NCBI GenBank assembly: GCA_015491245.1
Contig: WFWH01000021.1
Location: 1 to 45,651 of the forward strand
Length of the DNA: 45,651 bases
Reading direction: 5' to 3'
DNA from: Patescibacteria group bacterium
Lineage (GTDB): Bacteria > Patescibacteriota > Minisyncoccia > Phycocordibacterales > UBA12088
Shown in pieces: positions 12,211 to 19,549 of the stretch; positions within the stretch are counted from its first letter, which is position 1, and every line of letters starts with the position of its first letter. Position numbers and translations under genes: made by a program. The notes below the pieces were generated by a model, which saw only the letters and a list, made by a program, of their open reading frames with translations, had not been told where the DNA came from and searched no databases.

Positions 12211-13309
12211 ATTTACATAAGTAGAAATTTTATATAAGGATTAGACAGGAAGCAAGCAGATCTTGCAATAATTATCTACATAAGTAGAAATTTTATATAA
12301 GGATTAGACACGCATTGCGTTTGCTACCTCCAAAATCTACATAAGTAGAAATTTTATATAAGGATTAGACAGCATAATAATTTCTGCGAGGACAGAAAAT
12401 CTACATAAGTAGAAATTTTATATAAGGATTAGACATGCGCAGTGAGCTCGCAGCCCTTGGATCTACATAAGTAGAAATTTTATATAAGGATTAGACCTGC
12501 ATAGGAATATGCAGAGCGTGGCAATCTACATAAGTAGAAATTTTATATAAGGATTAGACTGGTGCTTTGTGAAGTAGTAGACGGATCTACATAAGTAGAA
12601 ATTTTATATAAGGATTAGACGGGAAGGAGTGCACGCAATGCGTCCGAATCTACATAAGTAGAAATTTTATATAAGGATTAGACGATGTCAACGCCCATCC
12701 ACTGGTTCATATCTACATAAGTAGAAATTTTATATAAGGATTAGACTCCCTCTGCTGCGGTAATCGACATTAATCTACATAAGTAAAAATTTTATATAAG
12801 GATTAGACTGCGCAACCGTCACATCATGATCAGGATCTACATAAGTAGAAATTTTATATAAGGATTAGACCCGCAAGTGTGGTGAGCCGCTAACTACCAT
12901 CTACATAAGTAGAAATTTTATATAAGGATTAGACAGGGACGCCGGTGTGCGTTTGCCCATCATCTACATAAGTAGAAATTTTATATAAGGATTAGACTCG
13001 CAAAAAATGGCTCAACAAAGCCGATCTACATAAGTAGAAATTTTATATAAGGATTAGACCTGGCGGGTTGAGCAGGAGCGGCGGCTATCTACATAAGTAG
13101 AAATTTTATATAAGGATTAGACGCCAGAATAGCCAAACTAGCTGGTTTATCTACATAAGTAGAAATTTTATATAAGGATTAGACTGGCAAAAACAACTTC
13201 ACCGCAGTAGAATCTACATAAGTAGAAATTTTATATAAGGATTAGACTGGTCCGCTCTATGTCTTCGCGGGTAATCTACATAAGTAGAAATTTTATATAA
13301 GGATTAGAC
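12211..13309 (-). CRISPR. Type V-A CRISPR array, 18 repeats of 36 nt and 17 spacers of 25-28 nt
   Basis: Transcribed-strand repeat GTCTAATCCTTATATAAAATTTCTACTTATGTAGAT with the canonical Cas12a AATTTCTAC-loop-GTAGAT handle; variant repeats at 12211 (trailer) and 12773; leader on the cas2 side. Confidence 0.99.
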
Positions 13310-13657
13310 AGCTGATATGGCCTTGTTGAGCCATTTTCTGGAAAGGGGCGATAAATTATTTTCCAAAAAATCTTTATTTTTATTCACCCCCCTCATAGAA
13401 AGACCGAGGTTTTGCTTTTGAAGCGGTGGAAATACGGGGCGGAGGGAGCACCTATCGGCTTCCCCGCCCCGAAATTCCCATGAAAGAGGTGGGCGCGCCG
13501 AGCGCCGCCGCTTTACAACCTCTTATTACACAACTCAACCGGGCCGTCTAAACAATCCTTACACTGAAACTTCCACCTATGCCATTGCCGCCTCACTTCC
13601 CTCCATTTTCGCAGAGGAAAGTGAAACGGTACGGTATGGAATTTTCAATGTGCTTTC
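13310..13657 (-). promoter_or_regulatory. CRISPR leader / cas2-array intergenic region
   Basis: AT-rich tract at about 13350-13385, palindrome ATGGC-N8-GCCAT at 13317-13334, hairpins at 13435-13471 and 13593-13624. Confidence 0.8.
13530..13582 (-). ncRNA. Anti-repeat / anti-leader segment (tracrRNA-like)
   Basis: 13546-13581 aligns to repeat positions 1-31 in inverted orientation: 26 identities, 4 T>C changes (G-U on minus-strand RNA), 1 mismatch, two bulges; 13530-13545 is complementary to the proximal leader. Confidence 0.7.
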
Positions 13658-13939
13658 CTACGTGAATACCAGCACCTCCCCTTCTTCATTCGCCGCCGCA
13701 CCGTATCGGATTACCTTTTTCCTATCCGCCGGAGTGACCGGAATAATAAGTATGCTGTCGGCGCCGGTAAACTTCTTCTTATATTTTAATTCTACCTCAG
13801 CAAGGATATTTTGCAACACCCGCTCACTGTGGCGTACCTCAAACACCGAGTACTGCAGGCGGCGCCCATAGCGCGAAAGAAATTTGGCGAACTTCGCCCG
13901 CAACTTATCGTCTGAAAAATCGTAAGCTACCAGCAGCAT
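13658..13939 (-). CDS. cas2: CRISPR-associated endoribonuclease Cas2
   Basis: LVAYDFSDDKLRAKF...YGRRLQYSVFE motif; 93 aa; adjacent to the leader. Confidence 0.97.
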   Translation of the reverse strand: MLLVAYDFSDDKLRAKFAKFLSRYGRRLQYSVFEVRHSERVLQNILAEVELKYKKKFTGADSILIIPVTPADRKKVIRYGAAANEEGEVLVFT

Positions 13940-14973
13940 ACTCCGTGTGGATCCTCACTCCCCTCCCCCTTGGCGGGTGACGCCTCCGTCGGTAAAAACG
14001 CCGAGGGGGCGCGCGTATATTTACGCACGTCAAACTCTCTCAAAGGATGCCGCCCGGGCAGCATGATATGACGATAAAGCCCTTGTATATAAGCATAAAT
14101 ATCCTCCTTTCTCTCCATGATGGCATCGCTGAAGATGCGATAGTACTTCGGCGCCGCATTCCACGGGAGAGCGTAACCGCCCTGCTTCGTTTTGCAGAAA
14201 TCCTCTTCTTTTATCCGGCCCAACCGGTACGCTTTTAACAGCGCCCTGTCCACGAGACAACGGAACGGTTCCACCGTATCCACCACCAATGATTTTCGGG
14301 CAAAAAACAACTGGTGGTATACCCCCTTGTAGAGGTCAAAGCCGTAGGTGCGCAGCAGCGCCTCGGAGAAATTCCCCAACAAGGTGTATCCGATGTCCAA
14401 CAAAAGATTGGGTATGTCCTCTTTTGCGCGCGGCGCGCGGCGCCGCCACCCTATTTCATGGAAAAACCGCCGGAAAAAGCTGCGTGAAGAAGACCCCTCT
14501 ATGCCCAACAATGCCGCGCGATCTTTTGCCGCGCGCACCTGCTCCAGTATCCGCCGCACGTCGCTTTGGCGCGCGTCTTTTCCCAAAAGGCGCAATTGGT
14601 TTTTTATCTTGTTGGCGACTATGTGTTTTGCAATGAAGAAATTTTCTTCCTCGGAAAGCGCATACTGCCGCATCCGCAAAAGATAGTTCCCCTCCGCGCC
14701 CCCTCCCAAAGAAGCGTACGTACGGTAGTTTTGGTTCAAAAAAAAGAAAGAAACTCCCAGCTCCACCCCCTTGCGCAGCAAGACGCTGGTAAAAGACATC
14801 TCTCCGACAAAAAATACCGCAAGGGCCCTGTGGCACGATGCGCGGTTAACCACCTTTCCGTCTTTGCTGAACACAATATGGTCATTCTGAAACCGCACCG
14901 CGGTTTCACCCTTGTGTGCCCGCGCATCAATAAAAAGTATTTGCTTTTCTTTAAAATCCGCAGGGGAAAGCAT
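13927..14973 (-). CDS. cas1: CRISPR-associated integrase Cas1 (type V-A-like)
   Basis: NKIKNQ, LLGIEG (E), NLLLDIGYT, GVYHQ (H), SLVVDTVEPFR (D) motifs. Confidence 0.96.
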   Translation of the reverse strand: MLSPADFKEKQILFIDARAHKGETAVRFQNDHIVFSKDGKVVNRASCHRALAVFFVGEMSFTSVLLRKGVELGVSFFFLNQNYRTYASLGGGAEGNYLLRMRQYALSEEENFFIAKHIVANKIKNQLRLLGKDARQSDVRRILEQVRAAKDRAALLGIEGSSSRSFFRRFFHEIGWRRRAPRAKEDIPNLLLDIGYTLLGNFSEALLRTYGFDLYKGVYHQLFFARKSLVVDTVEPFRCLVDRALLKAYRLGRIKEEDFCKTKQGGYALPWNAAPKYYRIFSDAIMERKEDIYAYIQGLYRHIMLPGRHPLREFDVRKYTRAPSAFLPTEASPAKGEGSEDPHGVCCW

Positions 14974-15001: not shown

Positions 15002-15544
15002 CTACCACGCCAAGTTGCCGTAGATGCTACGCGCACCGCGCGCATCCACCTCCCTCTTTACCAAATCGCGCGCATTGAGCGCGCGCATGGCGCGCAGCAC
15101 CTCTTCCAGCTCTTTCCTGTCCTCGGCGCCGGGCAGGGGTATGCGGTAGCGTTTGTTGTCCTCCAGAGAATGGAGTGAAATTTTCTCCACTGGCATCCCG
15201 CCCTCCTCCAGCGCATACACCTGCGCATATATTTGCAAGACGTAGCCGCGGTACACCGCTTTTATCCTCGTCTTGCGCTCTATGAGATGCCGCGTGCGCG
15301 CATCATAAATATCAATGCGCCCTCCCACCTGCAGAGCCTCCGACCATGCATACAAGCCGGAAAGAACCTGCCGACTGGTGCTGTAGGTTCCCGCATCCAG
15401 ATTTTCGTGCAGCAATTTCCCTTTTACCTGCGGCTGCTGCTTATACGTCGCATCGGCATAGCCCATGTGCGCCCCGTGCAGGTAGAGCGATGCGCTGCTG
15501 AAAAGGAAATCGTTGATTTGCGAGAAGGTAATGTATTGCTCCAT
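15002..15544 (-). CDS. cas4: CRISPR-associated Cas4 (type V-A-like), cysteine-free
   Basis: ITFSQINDFLF, GKLLHE, GRIDIY, LIERKT, QIYAQ PD-(D/E)xK motifs; located between cas12a and cas1. Confidence 0.92.
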   Translation of the reverse strand: MEQYITFSQINDFLFSSASLYLHGAHMGYADATYKQQPQVKGKLLHENLDAGTYSTSRQVLSGLYAWSEALQVGGRIDIYDARTRHLIERKTRIKAVYRGYVLQIYAQVYALEEGGMPVEKISLHSLEDNKRYRIPLPGAEDRKELEEVLRAMRALNARDLVKREVDARGARSIYGNLAW

Positions 15545-15646: not shown

Positions 15647-18600
15647 CTACTTGAGGCGGGTAAACACTTCCTGATCCCACAGCGCGCGCTTGACGTACAG
15701 ATCGGGGTCGGCGCGGCCGGAGCGCAGCTGCTCCAGCGCGATCAACCCTTTGCGGGCGATGTTGTAGGCACCGACCGCATCACCGTTTTTAAGGTGCGCA
15801 TCTTCTGCGCGGGTGTCAAACCCGCAACGCGGGCACTGCAAAAAATCCACCTCCTCCTGCTCCTTCTCTCCCTCACGGTAGTGGTTGCGTATCTGCAATA
15901 AGGTGTTGAGGTAGTACACAAACGCCCGCCACGTGGCGGCGTCATCGCAGGCGAGCATTTCTTCCATCACGTTGTTGCCGCTCTGAATCGCCGTACCCAT
16001 GCCGGCCACCGCGCCGGAAAAGCCAGGCAGCGCCCCCTCCGGCGCCCCCGCGCCCACCACGCGGCGCAGGGCATCGGTCAGTGCGGCGGCGCTTATGGCA
16101 ACCGTCTTGCGGGTGGCCGCATCCCACCGCAGGCGATCCACGGCGCTGGTGAGGCGCACGGTGCCGCCGTCTTCTTCGCGACGATACGTAATGTGGATGG
16201 CGCCTTCCTCGCCGTACAATTCTTCTATCCTGCGCTCAACCTCTTTCTTAACTTGCTCCACTCCCCCGCCCCGGTAATTGAGATAGAGATCTTTCCGCCA
16301 ACCGCACTGCGGACACGTGGTGGAAGTGTAATCCGGGGATACGAAGAATACGATGCCGTGTTGCCCCTGCAATTTTTGCAGTGAGACGGTAGCGCGCTTA
16401 CCTTCCCGCAAACAAACCAGTTGCGGTGCGGAAAACGCATGGGGGTTTTCTTTGTCTATCACCAACTGTAGCTTTTCCAGCAGCGCTTTTTGGAATTGCT
16501 GGTATACGCTGCGCTCAAATTGCCCACCGCGCTTTTGCATAAAGCGAAAATGAAGGTTCTCCAACGCGATTACCGCATCATGCTCCAGCGCTTTTTGCAC
16601 GAGGAAATGCATCACGTGCGAAAGGTAGCCCGCTTTGAGTTTGGCGATGTTTTCCACCGCGCGCCACTGCTGTTTCGCCTCCTTGCGCTCCTGCGCGCGT
16701 GCCTCCAACAAGCGCGCGTAGTCGGCGCCTCCGATGGTGTTCAGGTCACCCCCCTCGCGATAGCGGCCGCGGGCATCGACCAGCGCCCAGTACAGCAAGT
16801 GTCTCTCGCCGCGATCAACGCCCAGCACCGCGCGCGGGATCTCCAAAAGTTTAACCCTGACTTCCTCATTGAATTCTTTGTGTTGACGCTCCTTGAGATG
16901 ATTATTGATTTTAACAGGAAAATGAAAGTGCAGTTTGCGCTCGTAGTAGCGATGTTGCTCGTACACCGGCTCATCGCCGCGGCGGGCCAGTTTGCCGCTC
17001 GCCAGCATTTTGGCATGCGGCTTGTCTTCACGGCGGTCGCGGAGGAAAATCTTTCCGCTGCCAGCCAGCATGAAGCGCAAAGGCACCTGCGACATATTCT
17101 CATCGGAGAAGAGCGTGCGGAAGAGAATGGTGTGGGTGTTGGGAGCGCCACATGCGCGGGTGCACAGGTCTTTGTTGCAGATGCGGAAGAGGAGTACCTT
17201 TCCCTCGCCGACCAAACGGTCCAGCAGCGCCACATCAAGGGGCTGCCACCACGCTTTGACGGCTTGCTGCCTGACGTCGCCGACAAACTCCTCGTAAGAG
17301 TCGTAGCGCTCTTTGAACGAGAAACTCAGTCCCGTGCCCCTCCTCTCGTGGTACTGTATCAGGCATTTCTTGTAGTACTCAATGAAAGTGTCAATGGCGT
17401 CCCCCACCACTTCACGTGCAAGTTTTTTTCCGTAACCGTATTTCTCAACTAGTGCAAACACCTCGGCGGGCAGATGCTTTCGCTTGTGCTCTCTCAAAAT
17501 CTTGTTTTCTCCTCCCTGCCTTGCGCCGGTCTTTCTCGTCGCCACGCCGTTTATCATCATCAGATTGGGAATATCTTTCGCGGGGTCGGCCATTATCTGC
17601 AGCATAAACATTTCCCACTCCGGTTTCCCGCCGCCGCGGTGCGCGGTAGGGGCGTTTTCGCAGAGCGCGCGGACGGCTGCGGCGCCGCTGAACACCGCAA
17701 GGTGCAGGGCGCCTTCCCCGTCTCTCACGAACAGCCCGAGGTTGTCACTCAGTTTGGTTTTGCTCCATCCTTCAAGAAAATTCGGTGAGAAATACACGCG
17801 CACCTCTTTGGGCACATCGGTCACCTTCGTCAGATAGTTGCGAATTTTGTTGAATGCTTTTTGTGGCCGCAGTTCCGCGATGCGGTGCTCCAACAGCCGC
17901 CACGCGTCATAAAATGCCGTGTCTTTGCTCTCCTCCGGAATAGCATCAAGCGCGTCTTCCTTTCCCTTATTGGTGCGGACACGGAAGGTGTGCTCTAGGC
18001 GCGCCAGCTCCACATACGCTTCCAAATATTCACGCCACGCCCGCACCATCGCTTCCCATGCTCCCTTGGCGGGACGGCGCTTTCGGGCAACCGCCGCGCG
18101 CAATTCCGCCACGGCATCGTCAAACTTTTTCTGAAGGGAGGGGAGCGGCTTAAAGGCGGCTTTGGCGCGATGATCCGCGTGCACCGAGCGCACCTCGCCG
18201 CCTGTGATGCGCGCCAAGGTGTTATAGCGCCACCGCGCCACAAAATCCTCCCAAGAAAGCGGCGCGCCGTCGCCGAGACGCCGCCATGCCGTACCGCTTT
18301 GCTCTACTAAATTGCGCAGTGCGCCTAATGTAGTGTAATCCTTGGAAATCGCCTTCTTGCCGCGAAAGAGGTCGTTTAGCGCCTGCCACTCGCTTAAAAT
18401 TTCTTGCGCCACTGCGCGCACCGTACTCTTGTGGAGGTAGATTTTTTCCTCTTGGTGCCCGCCGCGCTCAAGCTTTGCAAAGAAATCCTCAAAGAAACGG
18501 CGCGCCTGCGCCCACAGCAACGGCGCCTGTTCGGCAACATGCTCCAAAACTTCCAGCAGCGCTTGGTCGCTATCAATGTACTCCACGCGCAGCTCCCTCG

Positions 18601-19549
18601 GAGCGCCGATTTGCCGGTACAGCGGCACCAAGTGCGGCAGCGGGCGCTCATCTTTAGAGCGCGTTTGGTTGAAGTGGTTGATGCGCTGGTTAATGCCCTC
18701 CTCGGAAACTTCGCCCGCCTCGCCCCCTGCGCCGCCAATTTTTCGGTTGTACTCCTCAATGCCGCGGTAGCTGAGTACGCGATTGAACGCCCGAGGGGAA
18801 AACATCTCCACCTCGTCCGGCGCCAGCTTGAGCTCCTTCTGGCGAGGGCGAAGGTGTTGTTCAAACACAACGCAATTGCGGGCAAAAAAACCGAGGTTTT
18901 CAACAACACGGCGGGCTATCGTGCCGCTTTGAAGCTCTCCCTTGAAGTAATGCTCTCTGTTGAGCTTGAGGTCTTTCAATGCGGAAGAGAACTTTTCAAA
19001 AGCGGCGAGGTGACGGAGGAACTCTTGATTATCGGCATAGTGCCTTTTCAGCAGCGCAAAGATTTTTTCAGATTTGGCGAAGTCGTCAATGGTTGCCCCG
19101 TGTAATTTTTCGCTCCGGAAAGGCCCGGCGGCAGCGCCGGCGTTCTTTTTGCCGCCTCCTGTACCGAAAAAGGCACCGACCTTGCGGGCGATATCCTGCT
19201 CTAGTTTCCGCAATTCTCCAGCTAGCGCACGACGCCGCTTGGCGTCCGATGCGCGCGCCATATCTCGCCGCACCGCAAGGTATCTCTCAATGTCGTGCAA
19301 ATCCAAAGCGAGACGCTCCAGCGCGTCGTCAATAAAAACGGCGAGCAGCTCGTTCATTTTCTCCTTGAGATGCGGCCGCGCGGCATTGCGCTTCCGGTCT
19401 TCGGGAAAGATATCCCGCGCATCGCGCGCTTCCCAATTAATGTGCTGCGCGGTCGCCGCGGCGGGCTTAAGCTCAAACCGCAACGTTTTCGTCAACGGAA
19501 ATTTCTCATTGAAATCTTTAAAGCGTGGGTTCGCATCAGGAGACGGCAT
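15647..19549 (-). CDS. cas12a: Type V-A effector Cas12a (Cpf1), divergent, 1300 aa
   Basis: KTLRFELKP N-terminus, REC motifs (EYNRKIGG, GINQRIN, PLYRQI), FNKIRNYLTK, RuvC GVDRGE (D912), ALENL (E997), NGDAVGAYNIARKG (D1257), bridge helix, LQIRN; matching V-A repeat and cas4-cas1-cas2. Confidence 0.95.
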   Translation of the reverse strand: MPSPDANPRFKDFNEKFPLTKTLRFELKPAAATAQHINWEARDARDIFPEDRKRNAARPHLKEKMNELLAVFIDDALERLALDLHDIERYLAVRRDMARASDAKRRRALAGELRKLEQDIARKVGAFFGTGGGKKNAGAAAGPFRSEKLHGATIDDFAKSEKIFALLKRHYADNQEFLRHLAAFEKFSSALKDLKLNREHYFKGELQSGTIARRVVENLGFFARNCVVFEQHLRPRQKELKLAPDEVEMFSPRAFNRVLSYRGIEEYNRKIGGAGGEAGEVSEEGINQRINHFNQTRSKDERPLPHLVPLYRQIGAPRELRVEYIDSDQALLEVLEHVAEQAPLLWAQARRFFEDFFAKLERGGHQEEKIYLHKSTVRAVAQEILSEWQALNDLFRGKKAISKDYTTLGALRNLVEQSGTAWRRLGDGAPLSWEDFVARWRYNTLARITGGEVRSVHADHRAKAAFKPLPSLQKKFDDAVAELRAAVARKRRPAKGAWEAMVRAWREYLEAYVELARLEHTFRVRTNKGKEDALDAIPEESKDTAFYDAWRLLEHRIAELRPQKAFNKIRNYLTKVTDVPKEVRVYFSPNFLEGWSKTKLSDNLGLFVRDGEGALHLAVFSGAAAVRALCENAPTAHRGGGKPEWEMFMLQIMADPAKDIPNLMMINGVATRKTGARQGGENKILREHKRKHLPAEVFALVEKYGYGKKLAREVVGDAIDTFIEYYKKCLIQYHERRGTGLSFSFKERYDSYEEFVGDVRQQAVKAWWQPLDVALLDRLVGEGKVLLFRICNKDLCTRACGAPNTHTILFRTLFSDENMSQVPLRFMLAGSGKIFLRDRREDKPHAKMLASGKLARRGDEPVYEQHRYYERKLHFHFPVKINNHLKERQHKEFNEEVRVKLLEIPRAVLGVDRGERHLLYWALVDARGRYREGGDLNTIGGADYARLLEARAQERKEAKQQWRAVENIAKLKAGYLSHVMHFLVQKALEHDAVIALENLHFRFMQKRGGQFERSVYQQFQKALLEKLQLVIDKENPHAFSAPQLVCLREGKRATVSLQKLQGQHGIVFFVSPDYTSTTCPQCGWRKDLYLNYRGGGVEQVKKEVERRIEELYGEEGAIHITYRREEDGGTVRLTSAVDRLRWDAATRKTVAISAAALTDALRRVVGAGAPEGALPGFSGAVAGMGTAIQSGNNVMEEMLACDDAATWRAFVYYLNTLLQIRNHYREGEKEQEEVDFLQCPRCGFDTRAEDAHLKNGDAVGAYNIARKGLIALEQLRSGRADPDLYVKRALWDQEVFTRLK

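Follow-up and report, generated by a model that had tools for sequence, protein, structure and literature searches.

A degenerate inverted repeat copy in the leaders of type V-A CRISPR arrays, candidate upstream strand of an RNA helix with the first repeat

Why should the leader of a Cas12a array carry an inverted and degenerate copy of its own repeat? Cas12a is the textbook self-sufficient effector, which processes its own array. The question is raised by contig WFWH01000021.1 of a Patescibacteria group bacterium (assembly GCA_015491245.1), analysed over its whole length of 45,651 nt and referred to here as the window. It contains a type V-A CRISPR locus with all parts on the minus strand, in the order cas12a-cas4-cas1-cas2-leader-array. 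The leader (13310-13657, minus strand; 348 nt) spans from the cas2 stop to the first repeat (repeat 1, 13274-13309, minus strand), and the copy lies within it, at 13546-13581. We will refer to this copy as the anti-repeat. An initial annotation of the window had offered two functions for it, a trans-activating CRISPR RNA (tracrRNA) or a riboregulator acting on the first repeat, and the second is favoured here because the comparison across loci was positive. Specifically, we give about an even chance to the leader RNA of V-A arrays forming a conserved cis-acting helix, with the element as its upstream strand, by which repeat 1 is gated. The anti-repeat recurs in distant loci and tracks the repeat of each of them, the helix (P1) and a second hairpin (P3) covary, the substitutions show a G-U bias in the array sense, and the pairing competes in silico with the Cas12a handle of repeat 1.

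The anti-repeat in the window and in other type V-A loci

Read on the plus strand, 13546-13581 is a degenerate repeat covering positions 1-31, with 26 matches, four T>C and one A>G substitutions, and five gap columns made up of one 4-nt and one 1-nt insertion. The alignment scores 31, compared with 18.2 ± 2.7 in dinucleotide shuffles of the leader, of which 1 in 2000 reaches that value; the inverted copy described by the initial annotation is thus confirmed. The direct-orientation match in the leader scores 14, and the best repeat match elsewhere in the 45-kb window, outside the array, scores 26. The emphasis that had been placed on four of the five substitutions being T>C stands only in part: the counts are right, but the pattern is not significant alone because there are only five substitutions, and the bias becomes significant only in pooled loci. 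The adjacent 13530-13545 (minus strand), proposed as an “anti-leader”, does mirror the leader-proximal segment 13319-13334 (minus strand), leaving 13310-13318 as a 9-nt bulge, and the anti-repeat with this 16-nt flank scores 38 against 22.3 ± 3.4, a value reached by 4 of 2000 shuffles.

Taken as array-sense RNA, the element forms with the leader and repeat 1 a duplex of -53.5 kcal/mol, compared with -34.1 ± 3.6 for shuffled elements (0 of 500 as low), so the suggestion that pairing can span both the proximal leader and repeat 1 is borne out. The same duplex built from opposite strands reaches -39.5 kcal/mol, and hence the claim that the wobble pairs are valid on the minus strand holds for this locus; the element is supported as an anti-repeat relative to the strand of the precursor CRISPR RNA (pre-crRNA). 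The anti-repeat by itself is complementary to every repeat of the array, at -34.9 kcal/mol (-14.3 ± 2.3 in 500 shuffles). Folding of the whole leader with repeat 1 as array-sense RNA gives -153.1 kcal/mol (z -8.2, 100 shuffles), with the long-range helix present in the minimum free energy and centroid structures alike. Four DNA runs mapped to the window yielded only one strain variant and no joints; in the run that holds this variant (X2), 10 differences fall within 402 nt, 13546-13581 is identical, and the variant contig has different letters just before 13542. Rfam gave no family match to the window leader, where it returned only a 21-bit chance match to a microRNA (E 0.086), and nothing at E≤0.1 in four other loci.

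The comparison was extended to 20 V-A loci with an array and its upstream flank: the window, three loci from Cas1-based scans (L006, L010, L011), one locus from each of two other phyla (L042, L043), the Butyrivibrio plasmid NZ_CP017832.1 (L306), six loci from a 401-genome sample of the window's phylum and seven from the order of genome G417. Excluded before counting were G065, G087, G098, G285, G297, G331, G355 and G432 (no array, or contig end), L007, L008, L304, G1392 and G1379, as well as L009, whose array belongs to another type. An inverted copy of the locus's own repeat was taken as significant when its score was attained in no more than 15 of 300 shuffles, and such a copy lies upstream of repeat 1 in 15 of the 19 loci in the shuffle test. 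Weaker copies occupy the same position in L297 (reached by 20/300 shuffles) and L303 (140/300), and no anti-repeat was found in L011, L042 and L306 (3 of the 20 loci); the direct orientation shows no comparable excess, except in L032. The covarying inverted copy is thus kept in the same place in near and in very distant V-A loci, as the initial annotation had proposed to check.

The geometry of these leaders is constrained as well. The gap between anti-repeat and repeat 1 measures 109-119 nt in 13 loci, with larger values in L010 (129 nt), L029 (153 nt), L028 (227 nt) and the window (236 nt). The distance from the cas2 stop to the anti-repeat is 6-33 nt in six of the ten element loci measured, and 49, 76 and 193 nt in L029, the window and L016, respectively; the anti-repeat of L043 overlaps the cas2 stop. 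This arrangement is found in loci whose Cas12a is at most 37% identical to that of the window over the matched stretch, and the variable 5' half of each repeat is matched by the element of the same locus. The elements of the window and of its nearest relative, L010, have derived changes in common, and repeat position 10 is matched between element and repeat in both (T/T in the window, A/A in L010). Ranking own against other repeats over whole leaders is noisy, with the own repeat first in 5 of 12 cases and in one of the first four places in 10 of 12. Where element and repeat disagree, the differences are concentrated at repeat positions 13-17 and at 23-24, which lie in the 5' arm of the handle stem; the 3' arm of this stem is not copied in the elements. 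In L016 (G320:C13), cas12a is followed by a remnant of the cas2 3' end and then by leader and array; the adaptation module was deleted here and the leader kept. The architecture is independent of the adaptation genes, as this locus keeps the anti-repeat, P3 and the leader motif M1 (see below) and no Cas1 match was found in the G320 genome, which is 100% complete by marker genes.

Covariation was assessed for 12 loci chosen for their similar geometry (L034, L297-L303, L031, L016, L006 and L032), which could therefore be aligned with MAFFT without reference to structure. The window, L010, L028, L029 and L043 were omitted for length, and L011, L042 and L306 for lack of the element. On this alignment RNAalifold predicts de novo P1, with 21 pairs over repeat positions 5-28, together with P3. 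P1 has 91.7% of its 252 cells paired (76.5 ± 1.6 in shuffles; 0 of 500 reach it), a covariation score of 0.493 against 0.199 in shuffles (0/500) and at most 0.144 in slid controls, and 12 pairs with changes on both sides. For P3, aligned separately, 16 pairs are 89.5% paired (73.3 ± 2.1) with a covariation score of 0.527 against 0.231 (0/500). Both structures were derived from the same alignments used to score them, and the loci are related.

P3 is not derived from the repeat. It is a hairpin with locus-specific arms, wholly different between loci yet complementary, which enclose a small inner hairpin and the conserved strings AAAGTC and TTGYATCTTT. Folds of the proximal leader have z values from -2.6 to -8.6 in 8 of 11 loci; in the window, the stretch corresponding to P3 has no significant fold (z 0.2). 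P1 also encloses M1, a conserved motif of the AAAACCTYRGTCTT type (13400-13413 in the window, minus strand), nearly invariant across phyla and present too in the three loci without anti-repeat. Its GTCTT stands 95 nt from repeat 1 in the window, and of the 18 loci listed 15 have it at 95-106 nt (114 nt in L042, 143-146 nt in L028 and L029, 113 nt in L306). Some further candidates were dropped: P2, a small hairpin around M1 in many loci, has shifting registers and is not claimed as a consensus helix, and M1, the interior of P3 and a motif after cas2 were discarded as promoter boxes because their spacings are inconsistent. This last motif (CTTTRACAAWT type), the third conserved one, immediately follows the cas2 stop and precedes the anti-repeat in L034, L298-L302, L031, L006 and the window (~13640-13652); it holds a TTGACA-like hexamer, with no -10 box at consistent spacing.

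Strand, competition with the handle and rival explanations

Whether the conserved pairing operates in RNA can be approached through the substitutions. Pooled over the 15 clear elements and compared with their own repeats, T>C changes affect 24 of 204 T and A>G changes 3 of 132 A (Fisher p 0.0016), and 30 changes keep G-U pairing in the array sense against 14 in the opposite sense (p 0.04), besides 42 transversions. The P1 columns, which were picked by the sense-strand fold, contain 203 Watson-Crick cells, 28 G-U, 4 A-C and 17 others, and the covariation term of RNAalifold is better in the sense (-5.2) than in the antisense orientation (-3.2). An array-sense RNA helix is thus moderately supported by these patterns.

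Such a helix would compete with the fold required at repeat 1. The array-sense 3' end of the repeat is a canonical Cas12a handle, and partition-function folds of the window give its stem in repeat 1 a probability of 0.00 with the upstream leader and 0.84 without it; in silico, the pairing thus competes with the handle, in keeping with the expectation that it would melt it. Among 12 loci folded in the same way, this probability is at most 0.17 in seven when the leader upstream of M1 is included, and at least 0.95 in eleven when it is removed, the exception being L029, already low at 0.01. Across 19 loci, forcing the handle to form costs 0-4.7 kcal/mol; the value for the window is 3.7, and the two loci among them without the element have 0.0. 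Because of this low cost, the mismatches at positions 13-17 and 23-24 and the uncopied 3' arm, P1 is in these models a partial, near-isoenergetic mask rather than a lock.

The mechanism that we propose starts with the leader being transcribed with the array, either because a promoter lies within cas2 or upstream of it or because transcription of the cas operon reads through. On this RNA the degenerate anti-repeat, shortly after the cas2 stop, would pair with repeat 1 as P1 (positions ~5-28), enclosing M1 and the covarying hairpin P3. P1 would then be a near-isoenergetic switch, lowering or gating the access of Cas12a to repeat 1, the repeat from which the CRISPR RNA (crRNA) for the newest spacer is made. 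Were repeat 1 cut, the RNA upstream would be left by P1 with an end that is closed and structured.

Several observations weigh against this reading. The mask is predicted to be weak in 8 of the 17 element loci (0-1.2 kcal/mol), and in a system whose crRNAs are built as repeat-guide, masking repeat 1 would lower the crRNA of the newest spacer. That anti-repeat and repeat 1 share one transcript is assumed. Promoter-like sites lie inside cas2, 85 nt before its stop, in the window and L006, and may be there from the coding sequence alone, being suspect because they overlap conserved Cas2 codons. The P1 covariation signal would look the same if it came from homology alone or from gene conversion linking element and repeat 1, so that only the G-U bias, itself moderate, separates pairing from copying; C>T changes (11/79) are no rarer than G>A (6/38). 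The total RNAalifold energy is -17.2 in the sense and -21.9 in the antisense orientation (the latter including the invariant handle hairpin), P3 gives no strand call (9 G-U against 5 A-C cells, p 0.42), and the proximal leader folds better antisense in 2 of 11 loci. The 20 loci are a limited sample, 14 of them from one phylum, and are not independent. The fixed position of M1 and its occurrence without P1 fit a role at the DNA level, at least for M1.

This last point leads to an alternative that we regard as unlikely, albeit one deserving serious attention, in which the inverted repeat and M1 are secondary contacts for Cas1-Cas2(-Cas4) or a host factor, and the leader folds, perhaps with P3 extruded, aiming integration at the first repeat. 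It is favoured by the near invariance of M1 across phyla at its set distance in 15 of 18 loci, by its persistence in the three loci without anti-repeat, by the tightness of the 109-119 nt gap in 13 loci and by a consensus energy with no strand preference. Furthermore, the element keeps the leader-side end of the repeat and is without the spacer-side end, the internal TCTA being lost; Hille et al. (2026, PMC13034035) report that Fn Cas1 recognises TCTA, only 10 nt of leader having been tried in vitro. The same work nonetheless reports that Fn Cas1-Cas2 finds the leader-repeat junction in vitro with 3 nt of leader (PMC13034035). The P3 arms differ wholly across loci and remain complementary, which points to base pairing more than to a protein that binds a specific sequence; a surplus of G-U relative to A-C in P1 would not be expected in duplex DNA or a cruciform, and L016 keeps the whole architecture in a genome without Cas1 match. 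A decaying inverted duplication of the leader-repeat junction, devoid of function, seems to us highly improbable. The copy is indeed degenerate (26 of 31 positions match, with two indels), the duplication in the window visibly takes in 16 nt of leader, and 3 of the 20 loci have no element. A neutral relic would not last, nor would it keep in step with the repeat; here the same position and orientation recur in loci with very different Cas12a proteins, the variable 5' half of the repeat is matched by the element of its own locus, and the window and L010 combine common derived changes in the element with a matched change at repeat position 10.

The remaining alternatives turn on the pre-crRNA RNase segment of Cas12a (residues ~835-885; ~16895-17045 in the window, minus strand), which is shortened in the anti-repeat loci and has a motif of the xH(K/R)RY type there (segment compared in L006-L303). 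Of the three loci without anti-repeat, at least L011 and L042 have the canonical HKAN...KDKRY form, and L043 combines a KDKRY-type segment with an anti-repeat; this is a by-clade correlation over few loci. In the window, the third residue of the RNase triad, which we take to be Lb H759/K768/K785, aligns with Glu.

A trans-acting, tracrRNA-like RNA, either as its own transcript or as the 3' untranslated region of the cas mRNA, would pair with the repeats of the pre-crRNA for cleavage by RNase III, needed because the RNase pocket has changed in this Cas12a clade. The complementarity of the anti-repeat to every repeat (-34.9 against -14.3 ± 2.3 kcal/mol), the aligned Glu, the shortened segment and the canonical form in L011 and L042 are in its favour, and RNase III is encoded in the genome, which does not discriminate. 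We nevertheless judge this very unlikely. The initial annotation had outlined a separate RNA of ~200 nt bracketed by two hairpins, and both hairpins exist: the 17-bp one just after cas2 (13588-13629) is clearly better on the minus strand (-27.6, z -7.4) than on the plus (-18.5), but the GC-rich one (13435-13471) is no better on the minus (-25.4, z -3.0) than on the plus (-29.5, z -4.5), and it is not among the terminator-scan calls. Neither has a counterpart in other leaders. What is particular to the window is precisely the P1 extension of 16 nt into the proximal leader and an insertion of ~120 nt with two extra hairpins, and because the flanking hairpins are specific to it, a separate tracrRNA is not supported. 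Elsewhere the anti-repeat lies 6-33 nt past the cas2 stop in six measured loci, or overlaps the stop, leaving no room for a promoter of its own. Sequence scans found no transcription unit of its own: sigma-70-like promoters were absent inside the two leaders scanned (L043, L034), as were promoter- or terminator-like sites around their anti-repeats, and no promoter-like site was found between cas2 and the element in the window. The repeats keep the full canonical handle and the Cas12a is recognisable, the variant segment retains a His-Lys/Arg-Arg-Tyr motif suggesting a remodelled rather than lost site, and L043 has an anti-repeat together with the KDKRY-type segment.

A bolder idea, about which we are distinctly doubtful, makes the anti-repeat an obligatory cis partner of repeat 1 in a large, mostly small-genome clade with a shortened, remodelled RNase segment, with P1 opened or cut by a host factor, RNase III for example, or by ribosomes finishing cas2. 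If this were true, the newest crRNA would be conditional on a host factor, a tracr-like dependency inside type V-A, which the well-studied orthologues would have missed since their leaders lack the anti-repeat. Opening by ribosomes is disfavoured by the position of the element, which starts at least 15 nt past the cas2 stop in most measured loci, beyond the ribosome footprint.

The locus, its array and the search for relatives

Besides the leader, the locus is that of an ordinary V-A system, and what had been put forward as a candidate for an undescribed system is a leader feature of it. Its cas12a gene (15647-19549, minus strand) encodes 1300 aa with Pfam RuvC_1 (9e-49) and REC1 (4e-26) plus REC2 and PI domains, and solved Cas12a structures are matched at E 4e-93. 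The open reading frame (ORF) in the cas4 position (15002-15544, minus strand; 180 aa) is assigned from its position only and matches no Pfam family at E≤0.001. It is followed by cas1 (13927-14973, minus strand; Pfam Cas_Cas1, 1.5e-45) and cas2 (13658-13939, minus strand; Pfam CRISPR_Cas2, 5.9e-15), whose internal promoter-like site (9/12) is at 13771-13743. The array (12211-13309, minus strand) has 18 repeats and 17 spacers, and its leader-distal repeat (12211-12246) is mutated in the handle. The genome (G000) amounts to 0.87 Mb in 53 contigs and is 97.6% complete, from which we infer a small-genome bacterium as the host.

Two observations concern the spacers. The fifth from the leader (12998-13023) matches the leader-proximal 13318-13343 at 20 of 22 positions in the opposite orientation, with mismatches in the seed and GATA, not TTTV, as the would-be protospacer adjacent motif; its crRNA would be complementary to the leader RNA where the P1 extension 13530-13545 pairs. 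Spacers 16 (12310-12331) and 11 (12622-12643) are 77% complementary over 22 nt, and may come from the two strands of one protospacer region.

The search for further loci gave no close relatives of the leader among 41 related genomes; the single match, in G029, falls within an ABC-ATPase-like ORF and seems fortuitous. When genome and metagenome contigs were scanned with Cas1, all the loci obtained were distant (at most 49% identical), and plasmid searches found nothing with the window Cas12a and one plasmid with that of L042. Phylum-wide Cas12a searches around G440 and G442 (400 genomes) added one new locus each, and neither the family of G285 nor the order of G157 supplied a usable new array. 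The plasmid with the L306 locus (2245-2604; cas12a-cas2-array, without anti-repeat) also encodes, ~5 kb upstream of it, a HU-family DNA-binding protein. Matches to the leader pattern in viral contigs (at least 118 stretches) are taken as chance because none of the matches listed holds a Cas12a array. Viral contigs also carry the Cas12a handle pattern, as a single copy in at least 118 of them and in two copies only in L240 among the matches listed (L163-L242); the single copies look like solitary repeat units as in phages. Such units in phages have already been described.

Comparison with known systems

The tracrRNAs of Cas9, Cas12b and Cas12e (PMC10120712) resemble the element in being an anti-repeat beside the cas genes with complementarity to the repeat. 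In contrast, the element lies in cis in the leader, its effector is a Cas12a with a self-folding repeat handle, and its pairing would melt that handle instead of building an effector scaffold. Closer to V-A, solitary repeat units (SRUs) are standalone repeat-like sequences reported from ~49-56% of V-A loci, where most of them lie upstream of cas12a; they show no target pattern, and their function is given as unknown (Shmakov et al., 2023, PMC10120712). The anti-repeat shares with them the nature of a degenerate repeat copy in a V-A locus outside the array, but is inverted, without the handle stem and in the leader. An inverted leader copy is not mentioned in the text of Shmakov et al. (2023, PMC10120712) as far as available, and its supplementary tables may list some. 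CreR, upstream of cas12a, is oriented like a crRNA; its 5' handle is intact, and its pseudo-spacer matches the promoter of cas12a (10.1101/2023.03.10.532045). Unlike CreR, the element is inverted relative to the array, with a changed stem arm and a missing 3' arm in place of an intact handle, and the 30 nt that follow show no match to the region upstream of cas12a (scores of 14-16, with 15.6 ± 2.4 for the null).

Leader motifs with a role in integration are known from types I-E and I-F, where Cas1-Cas2 with integration host factor uses conserved upstream leader motifs (PMC13034035; 10.1101/2023.05.26.542337). The V-A leaders studied here likewise have conserved motifs at a fixed distance from the first repeat; they differ in that the covarying arms and G-U bias point to RNA. 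Binding and integration data for V-A cover 10 nt of leader, of which 3 nt mattered in vitro (Hille et al., 2026, PMC13034035), and Wu et al. (2022, PMC9419969), in the parts cited, did not dissect the leader. M1 and P3 are conserved V-A leader landmarks that can serve to orient arrays and to locate leaders in metagenomes. The literature searched, which covered few subscription journals, yielded no description of an anti-repeat in V-A leaders.

The nearest parallel is with the leader-repeat hairpins of type II-A (Liao et al., 2022, as cited in PMC13187072) and of VI-B and related Cas13 systems, in which leader RNA pairs with the first repeat (PMC13187072). As in those hairpins, conserved and found by structure prediction across loci, the pairing of leader and first repeat competes with the fold or partner that the effector needs (PMC13187072); in the V-A leaders the pairing is conserved beyond chance, and the competition with the repeat fold appears in silico. 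The II-A and VI-B partners form a local hairpin, whereas the V-A partner is a degenerate inverted repeat ~110 nt upstream that closes a multi-helix leader. The purpose would also differ. II-A and VI-B crRNAs are guide-repeat and the hairpin blocks an extraneous crRNA, whereas the first repeat of V-A makes a real one; V-A deals with the extraneous crRNA through a mutated last repeat, and a repeat-guide VI-A control had no hairpin (PMC13187072). V-A crRNAs are repeat-guide and their surplus repeat is the mutated one at the distal end, so that repeat 1 and spacer 1 together make an ordinary crRNA; the blocking of an extraneous first-repeat crRNA, as in II-A and VI-B, does not apply to V-A. Leader-repeat hairpins have been explained as a fix for guide-repeat systems only (PMC13187072). 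A conserved anti-repeat able to hide the first Cas12a repeat does not fit that explanation, and points to an unrecognised layer of control, whether of the newest spacer, of cas-array co-transcripts or of the integration site. It is also relevant to designing native-like Cas12a arrays from this clade, and the hypothesis is sharp and cheap to test.

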